DNA of 63,574 nt, counting the filler, from Rozella allomycis CSF55 (Eukaryota), in assembly GCA_000442015.1 (NCBI GenBank). It is 9 parts of 9 records of this genome, joined end to end, with 100 filler letters (N's around TTAATTAATTAA, not from the genome) between each part and the next. Parts side by side here need not be neighbours in the genome. Positions count along the whole stretch, not along the records: positions 1 to 28,599 come from KE560772.1; 8 more parts are not named here. The stretch is one strand, 5' to 3'. Below the pieces are notes generated by a model. The model did no database searches. It worked only from the letters and a program-made list of their open reading frames with translations, and was not told the origin of the DNA. The translations under genes and the position numbers were made by a program. Below, in pieces: positions 1 through 45,573 of the stretch. Position 1 is the stretch's first letter; every line of letters starts with the position of its first letter.

Positions 1-6
1 ATATTT

Positions 7-370
7 CTAAGTTGGTTCAGGGGCTCTTGAAACAATCATAGAGCCAAGGTGTTTTGCTAAGGAGACACTGATGCGTTCAATGAGGTGCTCTTTTTCTGTT
101 GAAAATGAAGGGCCGCGGCGAATGGACTTTAGCAACGCTACTTTCTGTGCCCATGAATGAAACCCCCCCCCCCAAGGCATCAAAAATAAGAGGAATAAAC
201 CCTGCACCTAACGCTGAAAGTTCTTCACTGTATTTTCTCTTTCTTTTTAATCGCAGCAAAATTAAGATGAGCTCCAATGTTTTCTGCTGCCTTTCCTAGG
301 TTGGATGAAGACAACATATACATCAAAAGCAGTAAATTCATCATTCCACCAGCAATTGTAAAATCATGAC
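7..370 (-). mobile_element. 3' fragment of a CRE/R2-type non-LTR retrotransposon (restriction-like endonuclease C-terminus), frameshifted
   Basis: Joining ORFs 77..277 and 7..207 across the G/C homopolymer at ~163-173 gives KRKYSEELSALGAGFIPLIFDALGG..H...HLIERISVSLAKHLGSMIVSR*. This matches from memory the K..KY...FIPL..E..GG....QR.SV.L pattern at the end of RLE-type LINEs. Confidence 0.6.
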
Positions 371-403
371 GTTTTTTAATTTTTGTCTATTGTTTACATT
401 TTT

Positions 404-528
404 ATCGGACGGGGAGGTACGACCGGACTCCAGGCACGATTATTGAAAATCGTGTTAACACCATTTTGACTTCAAATACAAATTCACTTTAAAGGATTTA
501 TACTGTTGACCAGGGTAGTTGTCGAATG
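404..528 (+). repeat. Diverged direct repeat, copy 1 (partner 2943-3066)
   Basis: Shared blocks GGACGGGG, ACGATTATTG, GTTAA, TCACTTTAA(A/G)GGATTTA, GTTGACCAG and GTTGTCGA in the same order in both copies. Confidence 0.8.
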
Positions 529-947
529 GTTTCTGTCTGTCTATTCTTTCATTGTACATCGTCCGATAAACAATATTCTTTTTGTTAGACTCTCCTTTGA
601 TTCAACTATTCAAGCAAATAGTCTACAAAAAGTATTTTGGCAAATGGCAATATGAATGAGAGTGAAGCCAGTACAAACCCTAACTATGGACAATGTGGTG
701 GGATCTGGAAACCCGGGCCCATGTGTGCTAACTTGCGCCAGAATCCGGATGAGCAAGCGATGACAACCTCTAGAAACAAAATGCTTTTCGTAGAGCGCAA
801 ATCGCAATTATGGAGTAAAGATGCCTATCAATTTATCAAATTGCGAAATCATACGATGCTTTGTGAAAAATAACGAACATATCTAATTTTTTAATGCGAT
901 CGAAGAGTTCAACCGCTAGTACCCTTGTGGTATCCAAGCCACTTTTC

Positions 948-1877
948 ATGGACTACAACAAACAAAAACTGGAAGCAGTGGAGCAAAAAATCGAGGCATT
1001 ACTGGACGATCATAAACTGCTTGAACTGAAGAAAAAGAAAAAGAAACGACAACTGGATGAAGATGGGGAAGCAGAACTCGAGCAGCTCTTGGAGAAGGTT
1101 GCCGAACTCAAGGACAGTGCTAAACGATGGTTTGAACTTGTGAAAATCACTACCAAGAAAGACGCAAAGATGGAAGAAGAAACCATTACGTTTGGAGATG
1201 CTACTGCAGAACAAATTCAAGCAGTCACAGGAGTCAAGTTTCCCATCCAGGATTTGGATGAGTTTCCATCGTATGAAGATGTTGTCCCATCTGATGATTT
1301 CATGGCCCAATATTTCAAGAATCGACAAGTGTGGTGTATAAACTCTGAGGCAAGTCAGAGGACTTACATTGACTTGTTTCTTCGGGATGTTGTTGCCAGG
1401 TTGGAATTTCAGCAGCGATTGAAAATCTTTTGTGAATTGAGCATGGGCGTTTCCAATGAGCAAGGAAGCAAGAAAATCAAGTTGTCTGGTAGATGTGACT
1501 ACACTATTGGTCACACAAGACCAACTGCGCTGGACTTTGGATCTCATCCGAATGATATTCATCTTTTGACAGTCGAGGCAAAAGAAGCTTGGATAAACAA
1601 AGATTGTTTACAATGCATTGCAGAGATGGCAACTGTGTACAAATCAAGAAAAGATGCTGGAAAGGAAAATTGTACTGTTTGGGGAATTTGGACCAATGCA
1701 TACTCATGGCAGTTCTTCTTAATTGACAATGATGGACAGGTTTATCGAACGGTCATGTACGTACTACAAAAGGACGATGATATTAAGAAGATTTATCGCT
1801 TCGTGTATCATTGCGTGAAACAAGCGTACAATGCATCTCCCACTGAAAGTTGTGCCCCCACGCCTGTTATTGTCTAA
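948..1877 (+). CDS. Crinkler-type protein: N-terminal coiled coil plus PD-(D/E)xK restriction-endonuclease-fold domain
   Basis: Intronless ORF (upstream ATG at 894 also possible). Motifs SEASQRTYIDLFL, LSGRCDYTIG, LLTVEAKE, QCIAEM and VWGIWTNAYSWQFFLID are typical of eukaryotic CR-REase domains. Confidence 0.7.
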   Translation: MDYNKQKLEAVEQKIEALLDDHKLLELKKKKKKRQLDEDGEAELEQLLEKVAELKDSAKRWFELVKITTKKDAKMEEETITFGDATAEQIQAVTGVKFPIQDLDEFPSYEDVVPSDDFMAQYFKNRQVWCINSEASQRTYIDLFLRDVVARLEFQQRLKIFCELSMGVSNEQGSKKIKLSGRCDYTIGHTRPTALDFGSHPNDIHLLTVEAKEAWINKDCLQCIAEMATVYKSRKDAGKENCTVWGIWTNAYSWQFFLIDNDGQVYRTVMYVLQKDDDIKKIYRFVYHCVKQAYNASPTESCAPTPVIV

Positions 1878-2124
1878 ATAAAAAAAATGCTGATGCCAAC
1901 ATTTAGCATTAAGCCTATCGAACGCGATTAATCAAGATGATCAATTGATTCATGACGCATTTGCTTTTATTCGTATAGCATCCATTTCCAATCGTTGTTT
2001 CATGGCCTTAGCAGTTACTTTTTCGTAATCAAATAAAATCAGGTTGCATTATGTTTGTATTTACAATTAGAAAATAAAAACATTACAATTATTGAGGCGT
2101 ACTTTTATTTAGGACGCGGCCGCA

Positions 2125-2840
2125 CTACGCAAACTTACGCACAACGTAGCCCTTATCGAATTCCAATAAGACATCGAAGCAAACAAATATATGAGCTGAT
2201 GAACCATCCGTATAGTCAATTGGCATGGTGTGGATGCTCATCATTAACTTGACCTCAGAAATTGTGTAGGAAGCAAGAGCAGCAGACCAGCAGTAGCGAA
2301 GACGCACAAATCTTGGGCATTTGACATATCTATTTCAAATGTAATTTTTCCACCAAGGAGATGCAAGGAACCAATTTGTTCATCCCTAGCATGCCAGTCC
2401 GCAAGTGTAACTGTAGACGGAGAGTATAGATTCTTGAAGATTGTGACCACGCCGTCAATTCAGTCGTTCCGTCGACTCCTTCATTCCAATAACTTGATTT
2501 ATCACCCGCAGCTGCCAATTGCTCCTCGCTCGCAGTCTCATTAAGGATTGTATGGAGCTCATTGTAATTTTGAATGTAATCAATTTGATTGCCGCCAATG
2601 GACACTCGTACTGCTGAAAATAAATTCCAATTTCCTTTACGAAATCGCCTAGTAGCGTCTGTTGGAGTCGGGTCCGGCACAACAGGCAAGACATATCGGA
2701 ATGCACGCAAGGCGGTACAGCGATTGAATCTTATAGGCTGTAGTGTAGACGAGTTCATGAAACGGTTTCGTACGTATTTAGATGGCATGAACTTGGCGGC
2801 AAAGGTGGTTGGGAATTTGAGCATAGAATCCAAAAATCAT
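2125..2840 (-). pseudogene. Degraded double-jelly-roll major capsid protein gene of Polinton-like virus/virophage type
   Basis: Three overlapping minus-strand ORFs join by single-base frameshifts into NLFSAVRVSIGGNQIDYIQNYNELHTILNE...TGMLGMNKLVP(L)HLLGGKITFEIDMSN...ASYTISEVKLMMSIHTMPIDY//AHIFVCFDVLLEFDKGYVVRKFA*. Motif recognition only, no search run. Confidence 0.72.
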
Positions 2841-2942
2841 CAAAGCAGAAGCGCGTACGGTCCTTCGATAACATTATAGTCTCTCCAAAAGTGATAATTT
2901 CAGCAAGAACGTTTGAAGCGGACTATTATTATAACAATTTAT

Positions 2943-3066
2943 TGGACGGGGTCGGTGAGTATACGACTTCAGAAACGATTATTGGCAAGTTGAGTTAATA
3001 CCGTTTTCACCTCGAATGCACACTCACTTTAAGGGATTTACATCGTTGACCAGTGGGGTTGTCGAG
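2943..3066 (+). repeat. Diverged direct repeat, copy 2 (partner 404-528)
   Basis: Same conserved blocks as copy 1. Confidence 0.8.
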
Positions 3067-3489
3067 TTTTTGCTTTGCATTGAAAGAAATAATGTTGCTC
3101 AATTAAAATCAGTGATAAATCATTACAACTAAGAAATTGAAAATAGGAAATGGAAAAAATTAGTTACTTCTATTGGTCACAAGTACTTTTCAATCAATCT
3201 ATTTCCAATACTAAAACGGATCCAAAAACACAAACTTGACATCACTACAAATATGTCCTGAACTGCTAGAAATACCCATGCCAAAGAGATGCAGAGGAAG
3301 AGTTTGTACAGATCAAAACCGAGGATTTAAAGAAAAATTTTATAAGTTTGTTCAAGAGAACCAGCTTGAATTTGAAGACTACTATTCTTTCACCAAAGAA
3401 GAGTCCTATTGGCGTTTTTACAATAAGCTACATCCAGCGGTAACAATCAAAGATTGAATAGTAAGTAACTAGGTACTATAAAAGAAGCG

Positions 3490-3759
3490 ATGAATGTTGA
3501 TTTTAAGCCCACGAACTACTTGGTTAAGAAAAAGACGTTTAAAATTTTGCGTTTTTCAGATAAAGAGATAATGATAGTATCTCATAACATATGCGGCACA
3601 GTTTCTTCTTTGCATAAATGGATTACGTTGAGTTTTCCTGATGTAAAGGTTGACAGAATTTTCGGGGTTGGAGAGAATGGGGAATTCAAAGAGTTGAATG
3701 ATGAAAATATCTCTAATTTTCAAAAGTATTTTGTTAACTTGGAAGGATTTGACAAGTAG
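3490..3759 (+). CDS. Small hypothetical protein (89 aa) with an inverted, frameshifted paralog immediately downstream
   Basis: ATG-started ORF. The minus-strand ORFs 3720..3944 and 3944..4225 encode near-identical peptides (KPTN.LVKKKTF, LHKWITLSFPD.KVDRIFGVG). Confidence 0.45.
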   Translation: MNVDFKPTNYLVKKKTFKILRFSDKEIMIVSHNICGTVSSLHKWITLSFPDVKVDRIFGVGENGEFKELNDENISNFQKYFVNLEGFDK

Positions 3760-4009
3760 AGTTGATCGGAATCTGGGATTAGTTTGATCGGCTGGACTGA
3801 CACTCTGCTCGTCAAAAACTTTCCTTTGAATTCCCGATTCCCTCCAACTCCGAAAATTCTATCAACCTTTATATCAGGAAAACTCAACGTAATCCATTTA
3901 TGCAATAAATTAACTGAGCCGCAAATAGTAGGTGATACTAGCATTATCTCTTTATCGCTAAATCGAAAATTCTAAACGTCTTTTTCTTAACCAAGCAGTT
4001 CGTGGGCTT
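3505..4009. repeat. Long inverted repeat: arms 3505-3691 and 3824-4009, spacer ~130 bp
   Basis: AAGCCCACGAAC...GAATTCAAAG on + is mirrored by CTTTGAATTC...GTTCGTGGGCTT with scattered substitutions. Confidence 0.9.
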
Positions 4010-5094
4010 TGGGTTAGCTCTTCTTATATGGTGAGAATATGCTTTGAAGGTAGACTCTATCAGATGCAGATGACTCGATAAGGTTTTCTTTACATTAATC
4101 ACTAAATCGTAAAATTCTAAACATCTTAATCTTATTTTTGTCGTTTTTCTTTTTCTCTGGAATAACTTCGAGTCCATGCACCTAAAAACAATTGGTCTTA
4201 TGCGAAAGTTTATGACTACTGGCACTCTTGATATGGATGTGAAGATGGAGTATGATTGGGAGGAAGGGAGGCGTTTTGATTTTGTGGATTTTTGTGGGGA
4301 GATTGTGTTTGAAGTTTGTGGAGTGGGAGGGGCTAGAGTATTTCAGTCGGGTGATGGTGAGAATGGTTTAACATTTGATGATTGTTTAGTTGGTAACAAA
4401 TTAACAATAGTCTTTGATGAAGTACACGGAACGTATTTTAAAGTGTTCACCTTATGGAGGATCAACAAATTAGAAATAGAGATTTAAGTTGGACAATATG
4501 CAGTTCAGGCATCAAGACAAATTGACAATAATGATAAATCTAAAATAAGGGTTCTTGACATTACTTTATTTAATTCCGTAAAGATTTCAAAGGAATGCCA
4601 ACGTTTTCCTTAGCACATTGAAAATATGATAGTGGCTTGTAGAACAGGCAGAACATTAGACGCACTTGCTTGAAGGGCTTGATTTATTAGCCGAAAAGTA
4701 TTATGATTCTGAAAAAGAGAGGTATTGAATACTACCATGACACTTTACATAACAAAGAGCCTCAAAAATTGGAATAAGAAAGACTATCCGAGTTTATGAG
4801 AATTTTCAAAGGCTTTTTCGCGAGGCTTCAGTCTAATGCAGTCGAGACAAAAAAGGTCTTAGAATCTTTGAATTTCCAGATAGCCAATCTTGATAATAGA
4901 TCCCAAATATATCATTTTGTTAGTATTCGTTCTCGACTGAAATTCTCTTTTGGGAGTAGTCTGCCATTTGATTCAATGATTCATCATCTTCTTTAGTCAC
5001 ATAATTTAATTAGTGGATAGGCCATGAGCGCCATGCAAAATAATGTTTATTGTTTCATTTTAATGTAATAAATGAAGGACGTAACTTTATTGTT

Positions 5095-7142
5095 TTATTT
5101 ATCGATTCTTTCGCAATAAGCCCTGGGAAATTCGCCCACTTTTCCCGTTCTTTTGTTCAAGCCAAAATACCATGAGCCATCGGGGTCGTTATCTACTCTT
5201 TCCTGGAGCACTGAAATAATATCACCTTCTAAAAAGGTAATTTCATCGCCGTTTTGTTTATCGTACGAATACAATCCGCGGACTTCAAAGTCAGCTCCGT
5301 CAAGGATTAACATTTGAACATAGTCTTTCGGGAAAAATCCGGACTTTCTTGTGCGGTAGTTTTCTCCTTTCCACCCAATTCAGTATCCTCAATCACGTTG
5401 ACGAGAAAATCACCCTCTTCGAGATCTATTTCATCAGCGTCATTAGCCGAATATTTAAATAAAGCTTTACATTTTTTAATTGTATCGAGTATTTCGCTTT
5501 TAGTGTTTGTGTTTGAATTTTTCAAGTGCAGAGCCAATTCGTCCTCATTTAATTGAATCGCAAAGATGGTCGGAAAGTCTCCAATTCGACCAGTTCGTAA
5601 ATTTTCACCATTCCACCATTCTTCATCTTGTGCCGACCTAACCTTGATTATATCTCCTGCTTTCAGCGGTAATTCAGAATCATCTGATACATCGTAGTCA
5701 TACAAAGCGCGCACTTTTAATTTCCTAAATTTTGAATTACCATATATCTCGACATTATTTAGTGCCATTTTATTCTCACCGACACCAGAGGGTACTTTTG
5801 GTATTTCCTGGTGAGATTCAGGGTTTACTACTACAGCAACAAATACTAACCTACTTCCATGGCTATGTAAAAGCTCAAAACATGAATTCATCCGATTGAG
5901 GATAGGTGTCATATATAGCCTTTTAAGAATCATTCCAAAATAATCCTACTGTAATCAAGTAAAATAAAGTACGCTTTTGATGTTTGAAGGATCGCCAAAG
6001 GACGGATTTTTAGAATATGATTCAATTAATACCTGTAATCCAGCAATTTCTTTGTCCAATTTTTGACAGTCTTTCAATAGCTCTTCCTTGTTTGTTATTA
6101 TGATTTGCATCTTATTAGATAGTGCAGATCTAGTAGCTTCATTAACGCTTATTGAAACCTTTTACAGAGCCTAATTTTGATTACCTCGGAACCAGTGATT
6201 TGAAGTGCCGGCATTTTTACGCGGGATTTATTAATACGGGATTGCTGTCTAAAATTTAATTGATCTTCTGTAGGATTTAATTGTTCAAGTGCATGCAAAA
6301 ATTGTTTGCTTTGAGCGTCATACTTCTCGCTCAAGGTAATTTGTGTTTTGAATATTTCGCCTACACATTCTTTCATTGTTTTAAATATATCGCCGTCGAT
6401 AAGCTACGTGCAGCAGAAATACTATAATTACAGATACAACTTCGGGGACAAAACAGTCCAAGTAGTGATTATAACTTTCTGAGAGCGACGAATTTGTTAA
6501 TATGTAATCATTTTTTACAAGGTGAGTATTATCTATTGATGAGAGCCATTTCTGTTTTAACTACATGAAATAATAAGGGCTTGAATACATTTTCTAGTTT
6601 TGTGGCTACATCAATTCTATCAAAAAATCCGGTTTTGGGGTTGTTACTTAGATCTTCGTATTTCTCTCGGCTTGTTTCTCTTATTTTAACCGATGCTAAG
6701 TAGAGTTTTTCGGCCTATTCATGAATTGATTCAAGCTTACTCGATCTTTTTCCTGCTGTGCCTTCATGAACTCCTCGTTGTATGCAACAATTACATCGAA
6801 CACTCTCTTTGCAGTCGCTTGTTTCTCTTTTATGGATTCTTTAAACATAGGGAACTTTTTAGCACAGTTCTCCGTGCGCTCAATATTGGCTTTGGCCTTC
6901 TCTAGTTCCCCGTCAAGGATTAACTGAATAAAATTATTTAGCATAGAATTCTTTTTCTTTGTGTTTGTATTAATACAGATTTTCTCCAGAGATCTGTAAT
7001 ATTCGTTCTCTAATTCTAACTTTCTTTTAAAAAATTCGCGTATTTGCTCGTAAGTGTAAAGATCGTCTTCATTTCTTAATGTTAACATATTATTTAAAGA
7101 CGATAATATTGTTTTCAACTCTTTCGCTTCAGTACTGGTCAT
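5095..7142 (-). CDS. F-BAR domain protein with three C-terminal SH3 domains (multi-exon)
   Basis: FCH-like segment FFKRKLELENEYYRSLEKI, then three SH3 repeats (VRALYDY..WWNGE..GDFP; CKALFKY..WKGE..GFFPKDYV; VRGLYSY..WYFG..GEFPRAY). Several short GT-AG introns and one apparent 1-nt frameshift at ~5373. Confidence 0.85.
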
Positions 7143-7264
7143 TACAAAAACAATAACAATGAAAAAAACCTAATCAAAGTTAATTGACATAGAAATACTA
7201 ATAGATAACCTAAAATAGTAAAATTAGTTCAAATGAAGCGAAACACGAACCTATTTTATTTTGC

Positions 7265-8046
7265 CTAATTTCTTCTTGGTGATTTCACTGGAGATCTAAT
7301 AATTGGATCGTAATGAACAACGGGATCAACTGAATGAAGTTTTCTTTTTTGGCCAATCAAGTCTACGGGACGAGGTACCTTTTTGGTTTTCTTAGGGGAA
7401 GGGAGTCTTTTCAAATCGCGCTTTTGTTTAAGCAAATCTTCAGATTTTATTTTATGAAGGGGATGGATGGATTTAAGGGCATCTTTTTTCTTCTTCAATT
7501 CACTAGGACTGAAAGGTACCGATCTTTTCCCTTTGGTTGGAGACTTAGGACGCTTTTCGTTCTCGGCAATACTCTTTGATGCCTTTCTTTTCTTAGATGA
7601 TAATCTTTGCTTAATTTTGGCGTCAGTCCAATGTTTCCATGACAACAAGCCCTTTTCAACGCTCTCCTTTTCAGTCGTTGCAATATAATGCATAAAGTTG
7701 AGCCATGCTTTAAAGAAAGTCTTTCTCAAAACTGGATATAACACTGTCTCGCCGCTCTTATGCAACTTTTTTTTCTTGGTAGCAACTAATGTTTCTATTT
7801 GCTTTAACAAATGATCGACATCTTTCACATCCGAAACTATAAAAGTAGGATAAAAGTAACCTTACCAGATTTGACTCCCAATTCTCTCAAATAAGAGAGA
7901 TAATCTGCTGGAATGTCAGGAAAGTCTTCAAAGATTTTATAGTACGGGTTGGATTTGCTAATTGACAGCTTCTTAGCTGGAGGATTATCATTGGAAGCAT
8001 CGCTTGAACTAGAGTTTCTTTTTTGGCGAAGATTGTATGATGGCAT
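7265..8046 (-). CDS. Lys-rich basic hypothetical protein (2 exons)
   Basis: ORFs 7837..8088 and 7265..7828 are joined in frame by a short GTAAG...ATAG intron at ~7837-7865. ATG at 8046. Confidence 0.6.
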
Positions 8047-8089
8047 TATCTCGGGATTTTGTTTACGTATTACCCTGGCGACAAACAAT

Positions 8090-9681
8090 ATGACTGGAGA
8101 AATTGAATCACCTGCACAGTTAAGCTATGCAGAAGCAGGCGAAGTAATTGAATATTTATCCACATTGGATTTGAGTGCATTTGGGAGTTTACCGTAAATT
8201 ATCCAAGTTAAACATATTGTAGCTGGTTGGAGAGACATGAGAATTTTGTGAAACTAAATATACAGGTACAAAAACAATTATCGAGCTTAATTCAAGGCTC
8301 ATCTGAATATTGCTAATAATCGTGATGAATATATTGCTGAATTAGTTTGTAAATCAGAAAAAGTAATACCAAATATTTTTGCGACAAAGTCCCATTTATT
8401 TTTGAACGAATTGTTGTTAAGTGAATGCTGGTCAAAAAGAGTGTTTCCAGAAATTGTTAAATCTGCAGACGAAAGAAACAGTGTCATTATATATTTTTCT
8501 GTATGAGCTTTTGAGAAAATATAGAGATAGCTATATCATGAAGCTACACTTGCCAATTTGTTTGATGTTTTCTGCGTGGAAAGTTCTTTTATTAGTAGTT
8601 TGGGAAATCATGTACTGGACTTAATAGACTATTGTCAAAGGTGCTTAAATAGATTAATAACAAAGTAAAAGTAAAAAAGAATTAAGATAGTGAATATAAT
8701 ATCTCAGAAATTCAAGCAATAGACTCTGCGAAAGGATCTCTCATTAATGTATAAAAATTTGACATTAATATTCAAGGAATCATACAACCAAAGCAAAGAA
8801 TTAGAATTTTCAATATCAATTTTTTCATTGTCTATACTTCGTTATCTAACAGACCATTTAGATATTTTGCCCATTAATTCTATTAGTCGATTAATTGACA
8901 CTCATGGTAAATGTAGATTGTTATCATTACAAAGATATAATCCAATCGTTGGTTTGCTTATTGAAACACGCACCTTGGATAAAGAAAGATAATTTAATAC
9001 CAGATAAGATCAAAGTCTTTGAAGACGGTCAATGGAGTTGGGTAGGGATTCCAGATTATGAAAAAGTTTCCAAAGCTGAAGCGCAAGTTTGGTTAACTCT
9101 GCTTAATATTGTAATAAACAAAGATTGTAGAAGAAAATACGAGGTGGATTATTATAGGAAAGAAACTCTTCTCCAAGTACGATCATTCCAGTATTTTTAG
9201 AAGATACGTCCACTTATGGAAAGAAAGAGTCTCTTAGATCAGATTCCAGTGCTTGAACATTTGCAGCGGGCTTTAGACGAAATCGCCATAATGAATGTCA
9301 ATGTTATTCCTTCCAATCAAGCGTTCATGATAAAGGAAATCTCTGAAACTGAATCATTCATTGACCACTATTGGACAAACAATTGCAAGACATTACTCAA
9401 ACAACAAATACAAGTATTTTCTGTTTACAATCATGAAAAACATGTCGAGATATCTAATAAGTAATTTATATCTTGATGTTTAATAATGATTTTCGCAAAT
9501 CTTTGATATTAACAAATTGGATCCAATTATTGCTCCACCGAAATGCTCAAAATGTGGAATGGCTGCTGAGAAGAGATGTTCACGTTGCAAGACAAGCTGG
9601 TATTGCAGTAGACAATGCCAAGTCTCACACTGGAATATGCATAAGAAACTTTGCGATTCAATAATCTCAACAATAAATTAA
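8090..9681 (+). CDS. ZMYND10: Zinc finger MYND domain protein 10 (BLU), axonemal dynein assembly factor
   Basis: WLERHENFVKLNIQAH, LYHEATLANL, KAEAQVWLTL and LLDQIPVLEHLQRAL motifs; C-terminal MYND finger CSKC...RCSRCKTSWYCSRQCQVSHWNMHKKLC; ~9 tiny introns. Confidence 0.92.
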
Positions 9682-9723
9682 TTCAGTATCATTCGATTTC
9701 GAAATTTCCATAAAACAAAATCA

Positions 9724-10029
9724 ATGTTGTATCGACTTATTGTCTTCAGAAACCCCCTAATTTCAATGTTTAATGCTATTCAGAAAAAAAACTTTTCGTT
9801 ACTTACCAATAGACTTTTAAAGCCAGCTCATTCGATAGGCAAAGTGCCATTTCTAGTCAACACCCAAATCCGACTCTTTCAGTGTCGAACATCAGTCAAG
9901 CGTGTTTGCATTCATTGTTATTTGACTAGACGCAAGGGAAGGTTATATAATTACTGTAAAGTGTATCCCAAGCACAAGCAAAAGCAGGGCAAGGGTGTAA
10001 AGGACCGCAGACAAAGGACAGGCTTTTAA
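9724..10029 (+). CDS. MRPL36: Mitochondrial ribosomal protein bL36m
   Basis: Basic presequence followed by [38 protein letters not shown] (L36 zinc ribbon). Confidence 0.9.
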
Positions 10030-10098
10030 ATTATACATAACGAGAAATAAAAACTTCCAGAAACGTGTTTGCTTTATTATGACAATAGCTAAATTTGT

Positions 10099-10508
10099 CT
10101 ATTTGACTTCATCTTCTTCCAGCAGCATATTAGGAATCCCATCTTTGATTGGATAAACATGCCCACAATTTTTACAAACCATTTCACCATCTATTATCTC
10201 TTTTTGCATCAAGATTCCATGCAGCAGCTTCAGTTCATCTTCAGTATAGCTTTCAATCTCCTTGTTCAAGTCGAACGGAATTTCTTCCATGATGTTTAAC
10301 TATAAAAAAATAATAAAGCGAATACTTGATTCATTGCGGCTTTAAGGGCATCAAAATCTAATCTGGGGATCATTCTTTCTATAAACTGTGGATGAAATTC
10401 AACTTCGCGGTCTTCAACGGTCATAACCTTGGCAAAATTCAAAGGAAAATTGTTTGTAGTGCATTTTTTAACATGGCACTGTAAAAGATTGTGTGTTAAA
10501 AGACGCAT
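10099..10508 (-). CDS. TRM112: Multifunctional methyltransferase activator Trm112
   Basis: MRLLTHNLLQCHVKKC...NFPL and CKNCGHVYPIKDGIPNMLL; one short GT-AG intron. Confidence 0.95.
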
Positions 10509-10663
10509 AAAAAAACGAGTGGCTGGGATATTAAGAAACCGGATGAATGGATAAAGAGCTAGTTTATATTGAATGCCAAAGTTTAACGAATCGGGTTTAA
10601 TGCAAGTCAAAAAATGGTAAATGAAATTGAAATTTTCGTATTGGAGAGTGTGACGTAATCGAA

Positions 10664-13600
10664 ATGCCTTTTGATCATCGGAATGAGTGTGCGTTTGAAA
10701 AGGCTGGGTTTATTTCAAGAATCTTTTATATGTGGACGAATGCGTTTGTGAATTATAGTTGGAAGAACAATCTAATGCCTTCTGATTTCCCACCCGTTGA
10801 GTAAGGTTTCATGATGAGATATATTAGTGCGGATATGGAAGCGCATAATTTGTTGGATAGATTTGAAACTGCGTGGACTAAAGAAAAGGCGAAGAGTAAC
10901 CCATCATTGATTAGGGCGGTGGTATGGTTTGTAATGTTTGCTAATTAGTGGAGTGTATTCAAGTGGCGTCATTTGTTAACAGGCTTCTATGGGGTACTTG
11001 AGAGTGTGTTCAAAATATCTGGAGCTGTGTTACTTGGCTTCTTGCTTAAATGGTTAAAGAACAATAATGGTGACATATTGCAAGGTAATGATTGTTGATA
11101 AGTTTGAGCATTAGGATGGTTGATTGTTGGATTTCTTTGTGCGAGTATGTTCCTTTATGGGATTGTGCACCATGTGTTATTTTTTTCATCGTATAGACTT
11201 GGAGTGTTTGTGAGGATAACGTTGTCTGCAGCGATTTATGAAAAGACGTTGAAATTGTCGACATCAACGTCGACTTCTACGGGGAAGATTATTAATATAG
11301 TATCTAATGATGTTCAAGTAGGATATTTATATAGCAAAAATAGGTTTTTGACATGGCGTCTCATTTTGCTCATTTTTTGTATGTAGGGCCGATTGAAGTT
11401 TTAATTTCTTATGGATTTCTTGTGTATTGGATTGGATGGTTAGCGTCATCTGCTGGATTGATTGTTATATTTTTGATGCTACCGTTGCAATGGGGGTTTG
11501 CCAAGAGATTTTCTAAACTGAGAGAGAAAATGGTTACTGCTAGGGATGATCGTGTGAGAATTCTGAGTGATTTATTTCATGGGATAATGATTGTAAAATA
11601 CTATTCATGGGAGGAGCCATTTTTGAAGTATATAAATGAAATAAGAAATAAAGAAACGAGATATTTGTTTAAAGCGTCTTGGATGAAGGCGATGAATGAA
11701 GCGCTGTTTTTTGCATCGCCAGTGATGATTTCGCTTGTTTCGTTTGGGACTGCATATTTAGCTGGAGAACAATTGGAGCCTTCTAGTATTTTTTCATCAT
11801 TGGCATTGTTGAATGTTATTAGATTAACAATGACCAATTTCTTTCCGTTGGCTGTGGAATCTGTGAGTGCGTCGCTGATATCTCTTGAGAGAATAAGAGA
11901 GATTCTGGTATCACCTGAAATAGGCATAGAAAATGCAGAGGAGAGCGATGAAGATTTGATTGTTGAGAATGCTTCATTTTCGTGGGGTGTTAATTCTTCT
12001 TCAAGTGGAGATGACAAGATGATTCCAATGCAAGAACATTCCGTGGCTCTAAGGGACTTGGATTTCAAAATAGGACAAGGCGAACTTTGCATTGTGATTG
12101 GAACATTTGGCAGTGGAAAATCATCATTGTTGTTGTCTATTATGGAAGAATTGAAGAAGATTTCAGGTATTACTAAAAAAGCATTTATAACCAGGGTGTT
12201 TAAAGAAGCCAAGGAGGATTAGATATGCGTCACAGAAGCCCTGGATTCTGTCTGGATCGATTAAAGAAAATATACTATTTGGTCAAACGTATGACGAAGA
12301 AGAGATGAATAGGGTTATAGAAGGATGTGCATTGAAGGAAGATTTGCTTAGATTTGATAATGGATTGGAAACAATGATAGGAGAGCAAGGATGTAATTTA
12401 TCAGGGGGACAAAAGGCGAGAATTACTTTAGCGAGAGCTATTTATAAGAGCAAAGATGTAGATTTAATTCTGCTTGATGATGTGATGAGTGCTGTTGATA
12501 ATAAAGTCGCGAATGTAATTTTTAAAACAATAAAAAGACTTGGCAAGATGTGTGTGTTGGCAACCCATCAATGGCAGTTTGTGGAGAAATCAGATAAAGT
12601 TTTAGTTTTGGATAATTCAAAACAAATATTTTTTGGTGGAATTGAAGAATTTTATAAATGGGATAATTTGATTGTTAAAAATGTGATTGAATATAAAGGA
12701 TCTAGATCTAAACAAGAAGAAAATGAAATTGATAAAGATGAAATAGATTTTAAAGGAGATGAAAATGAGAGAAATGAAATTATTAAAGAAGAAGATAGAA
12801 ATGTTGGATCTGTTTCTGGAAAAACTTATAAATATTTTGCTAAAAATGGAGGTAATCTATTTTTCAATCTATTTTTCAGGTGGCTTATCAGTAGTTCTAT
12901 TTTTAGTTTTTGCATTATCGATTGGACAAGCCTCAATAATAATATCAGATCGATGGTTAGCAATTTGGAGTGAATCTGTAGATCAAGAAAATTCAATGTA
13001 TATTATTGTATATTTTGGATTGTTTTTGATTGTGTTAATATTTTCTATAATTAGATCTGTGACATTTTTTAGATTTTGTTTGAAATCTTCGTGTAAAATA
13101 TTTGAATTGATGCTTGGGAGTGCCATGGGATCTAATTTGAATTTTTATCAATCTAATCCACATGGCAGAATATTGAATAGATTTACCAAAGATCAATCTC
13201 AAGCAGACGAAGAACTTCCAACAACATTCTTTGATGCCATTCAGTGCGTCTTTATTGTTCTTGGTGTAATCATTGTAATTTGCTACGTTAATTATTGGCT
13301 AATCATAACGCTTCCATTCATTTTATTTTCTTTTCTTTACGTTAGAAAAATTTATTTGAAATCTTCAAGAGAAATTAAAAGACTTGAAGCAATTTCACGT
13401 TCTCCAATCTATTCTCATCTTTCAATCACTCTGCAAGGGTTACCCATAATTAGATCTTCAAAAATGGAATCTAATTTTAAAAACACTTTTCTAAATTTTA
13501 TAAATGAAAATTCAAAATGTTATTTCGCTTTTATTTTCACTGCTCGATGGCTTGGCATTAGGTACTTTTAATAGATCTATTCCAATTAGATTAGATTTAC

Positions 13601-14616
13601 TTTCTAGTTTATTCTTTACTGTTTCTGTTATTGTTTGTGTTTTAATTAAAGATAAAATAGATCCTGGCCTAGTTGGCTTAGGCTTGGCTTATGTTATGCA
13701 ATTAATCTCTCTTGTTCAAGTAGAAATATTTCTATTTATTTAAAAGTGGTGCACTCGGCAATTAGCTGAAGTAGAAAATTTAATGACTTGCATTGAACGA
13801 ATGCTAGTTTACACTAAACTGCCCCAAGAGAATTGGACTTCTGAATCAAACATTCAGCCGCCCCCCAATTGGCCACAAAATGGTCAAATTGAATTTAATA
13901 ACATGTCTCTATCTTATCCAGAATCAAAATCACCAGCCTTGTCAAACATTAACTGCATCATAAAATCTAAACAGAAAGTCGGCATCGTGGGAACAACAGG
14001 CGCTGGAAAAAGTTCTTTCGTCACTTCCCTCTTCCGTTTCATAGAATCTACCCCTGAAAATTCAATTTCCATCGATAATATTCCAATCCAGAAAATAGAC
14101 TTGAAAACACTCCGTCAATCTCTCTCAATCATTCCTCAAGAATCATTTCTATTCAAAGGAACAGTCAGACTAAATCTAGATCCATTCAATCTGGAAACTG
14201 ACTCGAATCTATGGAGAGTCTTACAACTCGTCCAGCTAGAAAAACTAATAAAATCATTTCCCAATAAACTAGACCAAGAAATACACGAAAACGGTTCAAA
14301 TTTATCTATCGGCGAACGACAGTTAATCTGCCTCGCTCGCGCTATTCTCAGAAAACCCAAAATTCTTATAATGGACGAAGCAACCGCAAACATCGATTCT
14401 ACAACATCAAATCTAATCCAAAATTGCATTCATCAGGAATTTGCCAATTGCACAGTACTCACTATTGCTCACAGACTCAAGACTGTCATGCATTGCGATC
14501 TCATTTTGGTTCTTGATAAAGGCCACATTGTGGAGTCTGGGTCGCCATCCGCTCTCTTGGAAGCTAACGGTGCTTTTATAAAATTGTGCGATGAATTAAA
14601 TAAATCAATTGATTAA
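10664..14616 (+). CDS. ABCC/MRP-family (MRP4-like) full ABC transporter, multi-exon
   Basis: TMD1-NBD1 (GTFGSGKSS, LSGGQKARITLARA, ILLDD) then TMD2-NBD2 (GTTGAGKSS, NLSIGERQL, MDEATAN, TIAHRL); eight short GT-AG introns. Confidence 0.95.
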
Positions 14617-14734
14617 TTTTGGCAAAGTTAATAGCAGTTTTTGAAATCTTAAGGAATTTGCAACTTTGCATATATTCTTATGGATATTAAGAACTTCCCA
14701 CATTTAATTATGTATTTGAAAATGGTAGAAACAA

Positions 14735-14808
14735 GTTTCCATGGTGTAGTTGGTTATCACATCTGCTTAACACGCAGAAGGCCTCCAGTTCAAGTCTGGA
14801 TGGAAACA
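14735..14808 (+). tRNA. tRNA-Val(AAC)
   Basis: Acceptor stem GTTTCCA/TGGAAAC, D-arm TGGTGTAGTTGGTTATCAC, anticodon arm TCTGC-TTAACAC-GCAGA, T-arm TCCAG-TTCAAGT-CTGGA, followed by a TTTT Pol III terminator. Confidence 0.96.
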
Positions 14809-15146
14809 TTTTGTTCATTTTTACTTTTTTCTTTAAATGGTAATCACACTTTTTTTGTCAATATATTAAAATCACCGTCGAAGATATTATCATTACTTAA
14901 ATTTGCAACATTAATCCATTCCTGAAAAAAGTGTCAACTTTGTTCCATTAATAAGTCACACTTGCCTATCAAATATAAGCAATAAATTATTATCCTGCAA
15001 TCAAAAAACCAGGAGATAAACGCTGCAACCACCGGGTCTATTTGACTCGGTTGCGAAACTGGAGACCCAATTGATGAAACGATTTTTTTCGTCAATAATT
15101 TGATTCGCACACAGAAAAAATGTAATCTTCGTAATATTGTGCACAC

Positions 15147-19844: not shown

Positions 19845-19918
19845 GTTTCCATGGTGTAGTTGGTTATCACATCTGCTTAACACGCAGAAGGCCTCCAGTT
19901 CAAGTCTGGATGGAAACA
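19845..19918 (+). tRNA. tRNA-Val(AAC), identical second copy
   Basis: Sequence identical to 14735-14808, again followed by TTTT. Confidence 0.96.
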
Positions 19919-20087: not shown

Positions 20088-21717
20088 ATGAGCGATGACC
20101 ATGTAGTTCCCGTTAATGAAAACGTTTTACCATTAAAAAACGAGGTTAAATTACAAGCCGAAACTATACCCGAAAGAAAATCGAGTAAATCTGACAAGAA
20201 ATCCCTTTACAATCCATGGAAGGTTTTCCTTAATGACTTGGATCAACTTGATTACAGCAGTTCACAAGCTTTGAAAAGAGAAAGAGTGTATAACTTTCTT
20301 TTGATACCTAACCAACTTGAAAAAGTATCTTTGTTGCAGGCTTTATAGAAGGTTATGTGTTTTGGCTATTTCATATGCATGGATGCTTTTCTATATATGT
20401 TCACTATATTTCCCATTCGATTAATATTAGGACTATATGAATTAATTTTAAAGAAGTACATAGATTTAATAACACACATAGGAAATTGAGCATTGCAAGA
20501 AGATGCGATTTTCTTAAAGGTCTAATTATTTTTTGTGCCGTTTTATTGCTTCAAGAGATCAATTCTTCTATTCTATATCATTCAATTAGGGGGCAATCAG
20601 TGGTTAAACTTTATGTCATATTCAATGTATTAGAAGTAAGCACACTATGTCATGTTTAAATGATTTGTGATAAATTATGTTGTTCCTTCGGCCAGGATAT
20701 TCTGGATTCCTATTTGTCGAGCTTTTTGGATTTGCAAGATACAAAAATGGAAGAGCATCAGAAGTTAAGGCCTTTTACTCATTTCGTCTTGAGTGTAATT
20801 TACGTGTTTGTTCACGCGGTGGTATTTTTCTATCAATCCGTTTGCCTAAACGTAGCAATTAATTCGTATCATAATGCGTTGTTGACTCTTTTAATATCCA
20901 ATCAGTTTGTGGAAATAAAAGGAGCTGTGTTCAAAAGATTCGAAAAAGAAAATCTATTTCAGATGACGTGTAGTGGTACTTGACTTATTTTAGTTTATAA
21001 CAAGATATTGTTGAAAGAGTTCAACTCTCATTCTATTTGATTATAATCGGGCTAAGAAATATGATTGAAATGGGTGATAGTTTGAACAAATGGGACTACT
21101 TTTTCAATACTTTAGGTTTTCAGCTCTTGGTGGTTTTTGTCTGTGAAATATGTGTTGATTGGTTAAAGCATGCCTTTATTTGCAAATTCAATCTTATAAG
21201 GCCCATAATATATGGAAAATATCGCGATGTTTTGTCCAATGATTTGACAAAAGTGGACAAGCCTGTTGATAATTCGGCATTTGTTGCCCGTAGGATCGGA
21301 TTCGCATCAATTCCAGCTACTGCATTTGTAATTTAGGGTTAAATCTTTCAATTTTAGATCATCAGAGTAGCCATACAGCTTGGAAAAATGTTTGGGCTCA
21401 ATTCTCGAGAAATTGTTACTTATGGCCTTATACTTTTTCTTTGGTAAGACCTTAATTTATAATGTATGAAGCTTGTTATGTGTAAAACTATTACTCTCGC
21501 ATCTAATTTTACGTTGGGCAAACAATAATGTGCAGAAATATGAGAATCCAGGGCCCATAGTATCATTATATGCATCTTAAAATAGGAATTTTCATTTCCC
21601 CATGTTAAAGTCGGGCATCAGCTTGGAAAAGATTTTGATAATGCAAAAATTCAAGTTCCGGTACATACTCTTGAGAATATTGATAGATACACCTTAGTAA
21701 AATCCAGAATCCCGTAA
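20088..21717 (+). CDS. TAPT1: TAPT1/Emp65 (DUF747) ER membrane protein, multi-exon
   Basis: IRGQSVVKLYVIFNVLE, DKLCCSFGQD, LNVAINSYHNALLTLLISNQFVEIKGAVFKRFEKENLFQ, VDWLKHAFICKFN and terminal IDRYTLVKSRIP. Confidence 0.93.
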
Positions 21718-21819
21718 ATTCATTTCAATTGATTGTAAAATAAATTACTCTTGAACAATGATATGCCATATTTATTTTGAATGATATGTATTGGTTTAAA
21801 TGAATTTATACATTCAATT

Positions 21820-22725: not shown

Positions 22726-23773
22726 ATGATGCAACAACAGAAATACTCCTTTAACTTTCTCGCAGATAAATTGGATAATTTTCCATCAGAAAAATATGAT
22801 AAATTGATATATCCCTTTTATCATAACGATATACTGATTGGTGCCGTCCGTGATCAGACCTGGCGTATAATAGCGTCGAATGCTACAAAAGACTTGTTAA
22901 CAGTTTTCACATTTAAGGAAAACAAAATTACATATGTCGGCCTAAATTTAAGCGAAGACCTGCGAGCATTAATTCACTTTTGCAAAGAAAAACAATTGTT
23001 TAGTGTACTCGATAAATGGCGAAATGAAGAATATATTATTTATGGACAAAGTAAATTTTGTTATTTCTACGTTAAAGAATGCCTATCTCATAACGAAGAC
23101 AATAATAATTACACCAAATGTTTGGTTAATGTAGGCACGGTGGAAAGATCTGCTGTTGGCTTATTTGGCTTTAAAAGTTATGGAGTACATTTGAATGCCT
23201 TCTTTTACTCATCGGATGGAGAATGTTTCATGTGGATAGGCCAACGTTCCCATACAAAGGACTTTTATCCTAATCACTACGACCAAATGGTATTATATGT
23301 AATAGGTAAACAAAAGGTTGCTGGAGGCCTTTGCGTTCCTTTGACGCCTTACCAGTGTTTGGTAAAGGAATGCAAGGAAGAAGCAAATTTGGACGTTTGT
23401 TCCATTGGCTCTGACTTGAAAGAAGTTGGTACAATAAGCTATATAAACAGTATTGAGGAAGGCATATACCCTGAAACCCAGTACATTTTCGATCTCGAAA
23501 TTGGTGATTCATTTGAACCACAAAATACAGACGGTGAGGTTTCAGCATTCCATTGTATGCCAATTAGAAAAGTAATCTTTTAAATTTAATATATTAATGG
23601 TTATTGATGAAGTTATTTCTGGAAAGTTCAAACCTAACTGCGCTGCTGTGATAATAGACTTTTGCCTTAGACATGGATACCTCAAAGCGCGAGAAATTCA
23701 AAACTCCGAAAGTATTCTAAAGCATATCTATTGCTTGAATTCACCATTAGACTTAATAAACCGCTTAAAATAA
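22726..23773 (+). CDS. Nudix hydrolase of the YJR142W/DUF4743 (thiamine-pyrophosphate-related) type, multi-exon
   Basis: KWRNEEY, ERSAVGLFGFKSYGVHLN, MWIGQRS...DQMVAGG, Nudix box KECKEEANL, NTDGEV and FKPNCAAVIIDFCLRHG. Confidence 0.9.
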
Positions 23774-25218: not shown

Positions 25219-25672
25219 AATAAATATTAGTCCAGAATATTAAACTTCTTTGATGCCTTAAAGTAGGCGTCTTCAAAGTAGAATGTATCAATACCTACAT
25301 TTTAAAAGTTAAAACATTCAAAGTCGGTTTGGTATCGTTCTTTGATTAACACATTTGACAACACGATGTCTTGAATGGTCATTGTCAAAAAAGGTAGCAA
25401 AAGTTGGTGGGCGTCACATGGCTGTACTGCAATGCCAAGGACACCCTTGAGTTTATCCGAAGCAAGCCTCGAATAAACTCCCAGGAGACAAATTAATTTG
25501 AAAGTTGATGACTCCAGTGGAGTCACTTTAGCTTTCAAACTAAAGAGAACAGATACTACACTTGATCTAAGCCAGAGGCTTGAGATTGGTGACCTTAGTG
25601 AAATTTACAAAACTTAAAGGTAAATTGTTTTGAAAATTCATCCTTGTGGGTTTCAACTGTTTAATGTAAAAA

Positions 25673-28535: not shown

Positions 28536-28699
28536 ATTATATATAGACCAAAGTCTTTATCAACTCAAGAATTTAGAAGCATCATCAATCAATTAAGTTN
28601 NNNNNNNNNNNNNNNNNNNNNNNNNNNNNNNNNNNNNNNNNNNTTAATTAATTAANNNNNNNNNNNNNNNNNNNNNNNNNNNNNNNNNNNNNNNNNNNN

Positions 28700-35958: not shown

Positions 35959-36552
35959 TTTTGGTGGCAAAGTCGCTTTTTGGTTGAATTAAGATTACTA
36001 CCTTTTAGAAAATAATTCATTCAAATTCTTTATTTTCTTAGTTGGTTAATGGGTTATTGTTAAATCTTGTTATATTGAATTGATTTGCAATGCACATATC
36101 ACATTGTTTTATAATCCATCATAATTAAACGTTGCCAGTTGCAAGTCTAATAAGGTTTGCCCTTTAATTGAACTCAGGGGTGTGGCCTTTGAAGAGTAAC
36201 AAGCAAATATTACCATCCAAAAAATGAAGGTAGATTAGGTGCTAACTTTGCAAGTTTACCTTTGGTGATACTTGAATGAAAAATAGACTTTAAAGCTTAC
36301 TTTATTCAGGCTGTACTTATCGTGTTCCCTGTGCATTAATTGACCTAAGCTTAATTAATAGGCAACCTTGAGTCTGCCGAGTCGGCCAATAAGAAGAAAA
36401 GATTTTGAATTAAATTTGATTTATAGAAAGTTAGGTTTAAGGTTTTTGAAGNNNNNNNNNNNNNNNNNNNNNNNNNNNNNNNNNNNNNNNNNNNNTTAAT
36501 TAATTAANNNNNNNNNNNNNNNNNNNNNNNNNNNNNNNNNNNNNNNNNNNNG

Positions 36553-39500
36553 TTATAAGAATATCGTTATGGTATAGGTAGTAGTTTTGTTTAATCGGTA
36601 ACGTGGGAATATAATGTACTATGGTTGTTAGTGTGGCCGCTTTGGCTAGTTGATCGGCTAGCTCGTTTAGTTCTATACCTGAATGACCCTTTACATGTTC
36701 AAAGATAATTGAGCCTGCGAATTGTGATCGGAGGTACAGGGCATGGTCAATAATATCCAGGTTAGGCGTTTTAGTGGGTTTTAGTGTGTGGTAAGGAAAC
36801 TTTGAAAAAATGGTGTTCATAATTGTAAGAGCATTTTGTGAGTCACTAAATACTTTGATGTTGGCATTTGCCGGGCATTGTGTTAATCCGCTGATAATGG
36901 CAAATAGTTCGGGCCTTGTAGAGGACGGTTGTCCGAGTATTCTGCCAGAAATATTCATTTGTGTTTGACAGGTTTTATTAATAATAATGGATGCATAGCC
37001 AAGATTGTTATTCATGAGGGAGCCATCGCACCATATTTCAAAACGCTGGATATCCGTAGTGGGAGTTAAAAAGGAGATCTTTATTGGTAGAGAGCTGAAT
37101 GCACGTTGTGATGCCGTGGACCTGGTCGTTCTATGTCTGGTTTTGGTACTACAGAATTTACGTTTTAGTGGCAATTTAGTAGCAAGATTTATTGTTGGTA
37201 TCTTGGAATGGCTTAATGCGCGAAGTATTAAGTCAATGGGTTTTGGAATGATCTTATTATGTATATTTAGCGCGCCGCTTTTGCAGCTATGCTGGATTAA
37301 ATCCATATAGGATTTGGTATGCAGTCCAGAGGCATCAATATATGTTTCTATTTGGGGAATTTTAGATGTTAGGGACTTGTATTCCGCAAAGTCGTTCGCG
37401 TCCATTTCATATAGGATATCTTTTCTTAATGGCATATTAGGTCTTAACTGCAGTTGGTGATTGAGTAATGTCTTTGATAAATGCAAGATGTAGTAATTAT
37501 TGGCTTTGCGTTTGTAATCAAATGGTAGTTCAAGTAAATGACCCGGATGTTTGACGGTGGTTGTAATTATGTGGTGTGCGGCCTGGAATATTTGGCCAGG
37601 AAGGTTGTTATTTCGTAAGTGCCAAAAGGCATCGTGAATCCATTGTTTTTTCATATGCTCACCGAAGTTGTTGAGGCCCGTGTTTGGCAGACCCCAGAGT
37701 ATGTCATTGTGGAAATTTTTAGGAAGTTGTAATTTGGCCTTTACGAATTGAACAAGAAGTTTGTCAAATTTGTGCAGTTGAACATCAGTCATTGGTGTAA
37801 GTCTTAGGCGGTAAGTCAGTTTGGGGATGATGACTGTATTGCAAATTTCAATTGCAATAGGGCCTGATATAGATTTCCGAGACACTAAGTATAAAAGTTG
37901 TTTCAGTTCAGAGTATGCGTGGTCAATGGTGGCTAGCGAACAACTTGCCATTGTTCGGAACATACCAAGTGTGCGAAACACATGGTCTGAATCAAATTTG
38001 TGGGTTATTGGTTGATGTGCAACGTGGATATATCCAGGAAGTAAATTTTGGAGAACTTCATTTGTTACATTCGCAATGGTGGCACATTTTGGTGGTTGCA
38101 TTGTCATGCGATTATGAAGCAGGAAGTCGTGGGTAATGTCAAAACTAACTTGCAATTTGGTAGGCGAATCTGATATTATTGTTATATCGTCTGCAGAACC
38201 TACAACGGCTATGTTAATTGTTTCGGAAACGGTAAACCCTAGTTGGGAGTTTTGTAGTTTACACAGGAGTGGGTCATAGAAAATAGTCCATAATATGGGC
38301 GATATGGGGTCTCCCTGCGGCACGCCGCGTTTAACTGTGAATGCTTTTGTGTAGCCGTAATATGACTCGATCATTACTGTGCGGTTGGCCTCCAGACCGA
38401 GGATGAGTTCGATAAATTGGTGGGGTAATTTGAGCCTGGTAAGTGATCCCCGGATAGCTTCGGGTGGTACAGTGTCGAAAGCTTTGGCGACGTCGACTAG
38501 ACCCAGCCAGATTTGTCGTTTTTGAAAGTTAGCGATGTCGATAGTGTTTGTTAAAATAGAAAGGGAATCAAATGTTGACATATTTTGGCGAAATCCGAAG
38601 TTAGGACCTTGTAGGATGGAGTGTTGTTCAAGTGTTGATGTTAGTCGTTTAGTTATAATAGAGGTAAACAGTTTTCGAAAAGTTTCTAGTAATGTAATTG
38701 GTCTTAATTTGTCTAGTTCTCCAGCCCAGTCATTAATCTTTGGTAAGAGAATGATTTTTCCAGTGTTGACTTTATTTGGGAGAAAACCTGTTTTCATAGT
38801 AATATTAAATAGGTTGACTATAATTTGCAATGGAAGCTGTGGCAAATGTTTCCAAATCTCGTTAGTTAAACCAGTCATGCCAGGCGCTTTCTTCTTTGGA
38901 CTGTCGGAGATAGTGGCTTGAAGTTCCAGAATTGTAATTGGTTGCATTAAAGATGAATAGATAGTTGGATTAATGTCCTCAAGTGGCGGAAAATTGTCAT
39001 GCCAGAATGTTGTAATATGGCCCGTGTTGTCATCATAATTCGTAGGGGCGAAAAGGCTTTCAAAGTGGTGTGCAACATTAAGTAGCACCTGATCTGGATC
39101 GTCTGTAAGTTTACCGTTGGTCTTGGTAATATTCACGCCATTGAAGTCATTTGTGCGATTTAATATTGAATTCAGAATATGTTTTTTATTGTTAAGATAA
39201 TTACAAAGGCGATGATTGTTGAGTCGTTCNGTAAATGTTGGGATTAATGTGTTCAAGTGGTGGGAAATTGTCATGCCAGTAAGCTTGAATACTTCCAGTG
39301 TTTTCATCATAATTCGTAGGGGCGAAAAGGCTTTCGAAGTGGTTTGAGACATTAAAAAGCACCTGATCCGGATCGTCAGTAAGTTTACCGTTGGCCTTGG
39401 TAATGTTCACACCATTGAAGTCATTAGTGCGATTCAATATTGAATTCAAAATTTGTTTTTTATTGTTAAGATAGTTACAAAGGCGATGATTNTAAATGCA

Positions 39501-45500: not shown

Positions 45501-45528
45501 AAGGCCAATGAAAGCCCGAAGGNGCTAG
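36553..45528 (-). mobile_element. Non-LTR retrotransposon (N-terminal extension, APE endonuclease, reverse transcriptase, RNase H), assembled as a mosaic of several copies
   Basis: APE motifs SQNV, FFQETW, SIYVP, GGDWN, RLDYFL and TDH in 42229..45549. RT motifs KAPG, RPITLLE, GFR, DVAKAFDTV, GVPQGDPISP and SADD, plus RNase H (WCDGS, RPELFAI, SDSQ, HVKGHSGIELNELADQLA), in 36553..39229. Repeated fragments lie between. Confidence 0.95.
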
Positions 45529-45573
45529 ACAGAATAAATAAGCTAACATATTAGATAATGCATTTATATATTA

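Follow-up and report, generated by a model that had tools for sequence, protein, structure and literature searches.

Candidate ultra-short introns ending in TG in the genome of Rozella allomycis

TG acceptors and ultra-short introns in other organisms

Few signals in eukaryotic genes are as constant as the AG at the end of introns. The ultra-short introns of microsporidia, Paramecium and nucleomorphs, which are about 20-30 nt long and have the branch point near the 3' end, also end in AG, and we know of no TG class described for them. The introns of Rozella allomycis considered here are similarly tiny, whereas a few of them appear to end in TG.

TG 3' splice sites of the U2 type occur in human genes. 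In the parts of Szafranski et al. (2007, PMC2374985) drawn on here, they are alternative sites only, never the sole acceptor, and they are found in 36 genes genome-wide. An AG always lies within 28 nt, and a pyrimidine is preferred at position -3 (PMC2374985). In the human mutants treated in those parts, change of an acceptor AG into TG abolished splicing at this position and other AGs were activated (PMC2374985). GNAS and TSPYL2 are mentioned in connection with human TG 3' splice sites in the relevant passage of PMC4176328.

The subject of this study is a candidate intron at positions 9461-9488 of a 63,574-nt stretch of R. allomycis CSF55 DNA (assembly GCA_000442015.1), hereafter the window. 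It resembles the human sites in its GT donor, its U2-type context and the replacement of AG by TG at the intron end. Unlike the human sites, it has no internal AG, and the nearest AG lies 81 nt downstream, outside the 28-nt range. Instead of a pyrimidine, A occupies position -3 in all three candidate TG introns of Rozella. The frequencies differ as well: 36 genes per human genome, as against about three cases in 60 introns of one window.

In the fungus Ganoderma lingzhi, 22 GT-TG junctions (0.024%) are given in Table 1 of PMC11590231, together with 22 GT-AA and 38 GT-GG junctions. Since GT-TG junctions in that table are no commoner than GT-AA and rarer than GT-GG, they look like noise-level variants. 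To the extent of that table, GT-TG introns exist in fungi, as they appear to do in Rozella; in contrast to G. lingzhi, TG is the only homology-supported non-AG ending in the Rozella window, where it makes up a few percent. Among the papers listed by full-text searches, none was found on Rozella splice-site usage; passages from papers that mention Rozella report no more than the presence of introns or their density (2.5 per kb). GT-TG introns as such are known; new here would be TG as the sole acceptor, the AATG ending and a frequency at the percent level.

The candidate last intron of the ZMYND10-like gene

The DNA of the window is compact and AT-rich (33-40% G+C), and its stop codons are standard. 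A phmmer search with the public protein P0001 as query yielded 711 homologues at E<=1e-3, including 16 at E<=1e-30. From a reading of the homologues, and in agreement with the earlier note, we take the family to be ZMYND10. ZMYND10 is a dynein-arm assembly factor that acts in cilium assembly. The eight ordinary introns of the gene (Table 1) are all of the form GTA...AG and have lengths of 24-31 nt. The gene had been said to have eight introns altogether. This count has to be raised to nine, because 8364-8390 is an in-frame 27-nt intron without a stop codon; it is spliced out in P0001.

P0001 (R. allomycis CSF55, 290 aa) is identical to our model across exon 9 and terminates in ...HVEISNK, without the MYND exon. 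It skips several internal exons of the 445-codon model, so that on the whole the gene is poorly annotated in public records. The gene for a mitochondrial-type ribosomal protein L36 (9724-10026, plus strand; PF00444 match, E 3e-14) begins 45 nt past the ZMYND10-like stop codon, and thus the genes are tightly packed. Two tRNA-Val(AAC) genes with equal Rfam scores were found at 14735-14808 and 19845-19918, both on the plus strand.

Table 1. Features of the ZMYND10-like gene, the candidate TG-ending introns and the U2 snRNA gene (window coordinates)
Feature	Position	Strand	Details
ZMYND10-like gene	8090-9681	+	10 exons, 445 codons; ATG 8090, stop TAA 9679-9681
Intron 1 of ZMYND10-like gene	8194-8222	+	29 nt, GT-AG
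Ordinary intron of ZMYND10-like gene	8266-8296	+	GT-AG
Ordinary intron of ZMYND10-like gene	8364-8390	+	GT-AG
Ordinary intron of ZMYND10-like gene	8501-8530 (or -8524)	+	GT-AG
Ordinary intron of ZMYND10-like gene	8665-8690	+	GT-AG
Ordinary intron of ZMYND10-like gene	8749-8776	+	GT-AG
Ordinary intron of ZMYND10-like gene	8907-8934	+	GT-AG
Ordinary intron of ZMYND10-like gene	9177-9203 (or -9200)	+	GT-AG
Candidate intron 9 (last) of ZMYND10-like gene	9461-9488	+	28 nt, GTAATT...TTTAATAATG, phase 2, TG end
In-frame TAA; protein end if intron retained; public model stop	9462-9464	+	frame reading
Last exon with MYND zinc finger (about 9544-9654)	9489-9681	+	all eight Cys/His ligands
Second candidate TG-ending intron, DUF747 (TAPT1/EMP65-type) gene	20636-20662	+	27 nt, GTAAGC...GTTTAAATG, phase 0
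Third candidate TG-ending intron, Nudix-type gene	23572-23599	+	28 nt, GTAATC...ATATTAATG, phase 0
U2 snRNA gene	25402-25592	-	Rfam RF00004, 139 bits, full length

The complete element at 9461-9488 is GTAATTTATATCTTGATGTTTAATAATG; it starts with GTAA and ends with AATG. The frame of the upstream exon reads ...TCT AAT AA|G and, if unspliced, runs directly into TAA, whereas TAA TAA TGA at 9481-9489 blocks the frame of the downstream exon, so that both frames are closed within the element. The element contains no AG. The first one starts at 9569, already within the MYND finger. In a search for the shortest open path, any GT..AG intron was allowed within a size range of 15-60 nt, and again within one of 18-36 nt; no path passed the TAA ending at 9464. 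When 9461-9488 was added to the search, a single open frame extended to the terminal TAA of the gene. The predicted spliced junction is ...TCTAATAA|ATTTTCG, where AA|A gives a lysine codon. The earlier note had built its case on the unspliced stop, the lack of an AG before about 9569, the typical local size of a 28-nt intron and the restoration of the frame by its removal, and all four points hold.

In other respects the element has the appearance of a local intron. It opens with GTAATT, and its length fits those of the 63 introns of the window used for training (24-31 nt, mode 26-29). Two possible branch sites of the YTRAY kind are present, TTGAT and TTAAT, in which the A would lie 12 and 5 nt, respectively, before the intron end; the local introns, however, have no strong branch consensus. 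Minor, U12-type introns have the extended 5' consensus [AG]TATCCTT, and the 5' end of the element, GTAATTTA, does not conform to it. It departs from the local introns at the 3' end, with TG where they have AG.

One possibility is that the exons are joined in some other way: with the register displaced to 9462-9489 (TA..GA) or to 9460-9487 (AG..AT), through a 31- or 34-nt intron of the GT..TT or GT..TC kind, through a 115-nt GT-AG intron reaching 9575, or through translational recoding. Indeed, the TA..GA register yields the same protein, with Lys encoded by AAG instead of AAA, the 31- and 34-nt versions retain the frame, and an intron at 9461-9575, with its AG at 9574, is in frame. However, the 63 training introns, each selected for a GTA start, do not exceed 31 nt. 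The 115-nt version removes the first Cys pair of the finger, and the 31- and 34-nt versions remove residues that align with homologues. As for recoding, a +1 frameshift at the TAA meets the TAA TAA TGA series mentioned above. Taken as a group, these other joinings are very unlikely.

Ciliate readings were rejected, whether they take the element for an internal eliminated sequence or suppose a variant genetic code: TAA ends both the ZMYND10-like and the L36 genes, and an identical public protein comes from Rozella.

The exon exposed by removal of the element encodes a MYND zinc finger. Its Pfam match (PF01753, E 6.5e-12) spans 9490-9677 and covers residues 19-55 of the 62-aa translation. We aligned the spliced model with 24 of the 39 best homologues, namely those of 380-520 aa. 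There is no gap across the 9460|9489 junction, and the finger occupies the same C-terminal place in 19 of these 24 homologues, as counted by eye. The earlier description of the MYND finger as the conserved C-terminus of ZMYND10 is thereby borne out by both the profile match and the homologues. The C-terminal finger joins the ZMYND10-like protein only when 9461-9488 is removed.

On the other hand, the acceptor could simply be broken. The intron would then be retained and the truncated protein (290-445-aa type) ending in ...HVEISNK would be made, with the MYND exon a recent relic or the entire gene a pseudogene. The public gene model does stop at the same TAA, and no protein of at least 110 aa in a collection of 5.8 billion proteins contains the MYND exon. 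Splicing failure at TG in the human AG>TG mutants treated in the part of PMC2374985 drawn on here agrees with this reading. However, a relic would hardly be expected to look as this exon does: it is an open frame of 63 codons that has kept all its zinc ligands and matches its family with the E-value given above. Truncation is also opposed by the recurrence of the same AATG change in a further two conserved genes of the 63-kb window, and by the failure of the window analysis to find any homology-supported donor defects or other acceptor variants. Random decay should leave mixed lesions, and therefore the uniformity of the AATG lesions argues against it. We consider the broken acceptor unlikely.

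Further candidate TG introns and the scan of the window

The second candidate TG intron interrupts a DUF747 gene. Its sequence is GTAAGCACACTATGTCATGTTTAAATG, with an in-frame TAA inside and AAATG at the end. The DUF747 Pfam profile runs on over the junction, the upstream exon ending at profile position 50 and the downstream exon starting at 51. We scanned metagenome contigs with the DUF747 exon and obtained 75 related loci, the closest of which share about 62% identity along its entire length. The intron position could be scored at 55 of them, where both flanking motifs were found. The same codon boundary is interrupted in 39 of these 55 relatives, in every case by a GT...AG intron (30-87 nt), and is contiguous in the other 16. 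Given these 39 introns, the element at 20636-20662 is at an old and widely kept intron position. By this comparison it appears to be an intron whose AG became TG.

The third candidate, GTAATCTTTTAAATTTAATATATTAATG, ends in TTAATG and lies in a Nudix-type gene. The upstream exon matches PDB entry 3dup (E 2e-20), and no PDB match was found for the downstream exon. With the 28-nt TG intron removed, the model aligns without gaps with both of the two homologues. The public model P0152 has instead a 55-nt GT-AG intron at 23572-23626, which drops nine residues of conserved length. An AG that is out of frame starts at 23611, only 12 nt past the TG. Simple scanning would prefer this AG, and thus the third intron counts against choice by proximity.

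The ATG contained in AATG might suggest a start codon. This reading was rejected: the ATG is out of frame at 9461-9488. It is in frame at 20636-20662 and 23572-23599, as any phase-0 intron demands.

For comparison with ordinary introns we built a model from the 63 GTA...AG training introns of the window; it takes into account the length of the intron, positions 3-8 of the donor and positions -14 to -3. These introns start with GTA by selection, most commonly with GTAA. Without its last two bases, the element at 9461-9488 scores 5.16; the median of the training introns is 4.99. The 99th percentile of all 47,808 GT..NN candidates is 5.3 and exceeds the score of the element. Splice signals in this genome are thus weak, and the score shows likeness to local introns rather than the necessity of an intron.

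Both strands of the window were then scanned with this donor (GTA) and length range (24-31 nt) for all 15 non-AG endings. A candidate was kept if it closed both reading frames, if the open frames on either side ran for 30 codons or more and had positive coding scores, and if no GT-AG intron of 20-36 nt could take its place. This left 40 candidates at about 21 loci. Many are shifted copies of ordinary introns or fall within retroelement-like repeats at 36500-45570. Three loci are supported by homology, and all three end in TG, and indeed in AATG. No other non-AG ending with homology support was found in the window scan, with Pfam applied to 26 of the 62 distinct flank peptides. This set consisted mainly of non-shifted loci, with few flanks from shifted copies and without peptides that differ little except in register. 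The 26 peptides, which came from the non-TG candidates and from a weaker pair of TG candidates on the minus strand (1737-1764 and 21721-21748), matched no Pfam family with the exception of one Trm112p match (10102-10296, minus strand). The latter was rejected, because the intron next to it is an ordinary GT-AG one in a shifted copy.

TG makes up 319 of the 4041 background non-AG candidates; the probability that three of three supported loci end in TG by chance is thus about 5e-4. Among the 63 ordinary introns, AAAG endings occur in 12 and A at position -3 in 19. In the three TG introns, both -3 and -4 are A without exception. The contrast between AATG in 3/3 and AAAG in 12/63 suggests a specific AAUG signal and not random decay of AG. 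The recurrence of AATG, seen in few cases (n=3, one window), points to the same preference for a specific signal over decay. The window has about three TG introns against about 60 AG introns (61 AG introns in the canonical parse).

A plain count of gaps between open frames over all 256 terminal pairs gave 1025 gaps, including 879 without a GT-AG solution, and was swamped by chance open frames; a codon-usage filter was of little help. A Viterbi gene finder in which acceptors other than AG carried a penalty passed over 9461-9488, since it is cheaper there to terminate the gene and begin anew at an ATG. At penalties of 8-10 bits it picked only 53732-53759, with a TG end, and 39177-39204, a GT..AT candidate within the retroelement-like repeats. 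The 'introns' of the GT..AT and GT..TT kinds that the gene finder places in 36500-45570 are probably noise from decayed copies.

Several other features of the window were observed. The element at 53732-53762 (plus strand) has an unusual GTT donor and may end in TG (28 nt) or AG (31 nt) in the same frame, with an N 2 nt downstream. In the region 36500-45570 (minus strand), long open frames that resemble retroelements follow one another in repeated copies, interrupted by frame breaks and single N's; the stretches 40267-40294 and 42238-42265 in it are identical. Single N's are many and scattered beyond 29649. The scaffold gaps, at 28600-28699 and nine other places, have the form of 44 N, TTAATTAATTAA and 44 N, and this spacer stops all six frames.

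The sequence of the element itself could be in error, with a true ending in AG (for example, ...AATAG or ...AAAG). The only clearly independent DNA run, X5, comes from another study; its contig spans 6941-10937 and differs there from the window by a substitution at 10795 and by a one-letter insertion somewhere in the span. Among the pieces listed, that of X3 ends at 9406, before the element. However, the X1 contig (4584 letters, 5433-10016) is identical to the window, though the assembly may itself derive from X1. No difference at 9461-9488 was found among those listed for the DNA runs, which comprise 12 of the 26 indels and all but 94 of the substitutions. Moreover, the same A>T mistake would be needed at three separate loci, which is improbable. 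To our knowledge, A>T substitutions of such kind are not a typical artefact of sequencing platforms. An assembly base error is very unlikely as an account of the TG end. No RNA run was listed as covering 5000-14999, and the metatranscriptome run X13 gave only four scraps of 18-47 letters, none of them at the junction.

In the same DNA runs, contig depth rises 10-50-fold over two stretches, 1-667 and 2669-3335, and joints and strand switches occur within 1-5400. This end of the window looks like repeated DNA.

A proposed mechanism for the choice of the 3' splice site in Rozella

The element at 9461-9488 is likely to be a genuine ultra-short intron of the U2 type with UG as its sole 3' splice site. 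The earlier note had proposed TG as an obligatory 3' splice site; this is still an inference, and the best explanation of the locus, given that there is no canonical route through it and that two more AATG introns lie in the window. More generally, R. allomycis probably splices at TG routinely, as far as can be judged from the genomic sequence.

The following mechanism may be suggested. Firstly, introns this short would leave no more than about 5-12 nt between the branch point and their 3' end. The candidate branch distances in the element, 12 and 5 nt, fall within the spread of local introns. The U2 snRNA gene of the window carries the canonical GUAGUA box that binds the branch site, and thus branch-site pairing is expected to be conventional. 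Secondly, the second catalytic step would take an N-G pair at the permitted distance instead of searching for an AG. The last intron G pairs with the first intron G in cryo-EM structures of the spliceosome; in the proposed mechanism the last G would be kept for this contact, and U would be tolerated at position -2 where AA precedes it (AAUG). Finally, TG would act as the sole and constitutive acceptor, and splicing in the ZMYND10-like gene would join AA|A into the lysine codon and attach the MYND-finger exon to the rest of the protein.

We lean slightly towards a broader reading, in which AAUG would be a second, constitutive class of 3' splice sites; a few percent of the 24-31-nt introns would have it as their sole acceptor and would lack an AG in the vicinity. 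If such a class exists, the 3' end would be chosen by its distance from the branch point and not by recognition of AG. Altered or lost AG-reading factors, of the type of the U2AF small subunit, Slu7 or Prp18, may accompany it.

Public Rozella gene models would then be wrong wherever TG introns occur, as in the ZMYND10-like protein, which lacks its zinc finger, and the Nudix-type protein, which lacks nine residues. Gene finders for the phylum of Rozella should permit GT..AATG introns. If TG is the sole acceptor in several percent of introns, Rozella would offer a natural experiment on how the site for the second splicing step is chosen. As the microsporidia are its sister lineage, the TG trait would also bear on the evolution of their reduced spliceosomes.
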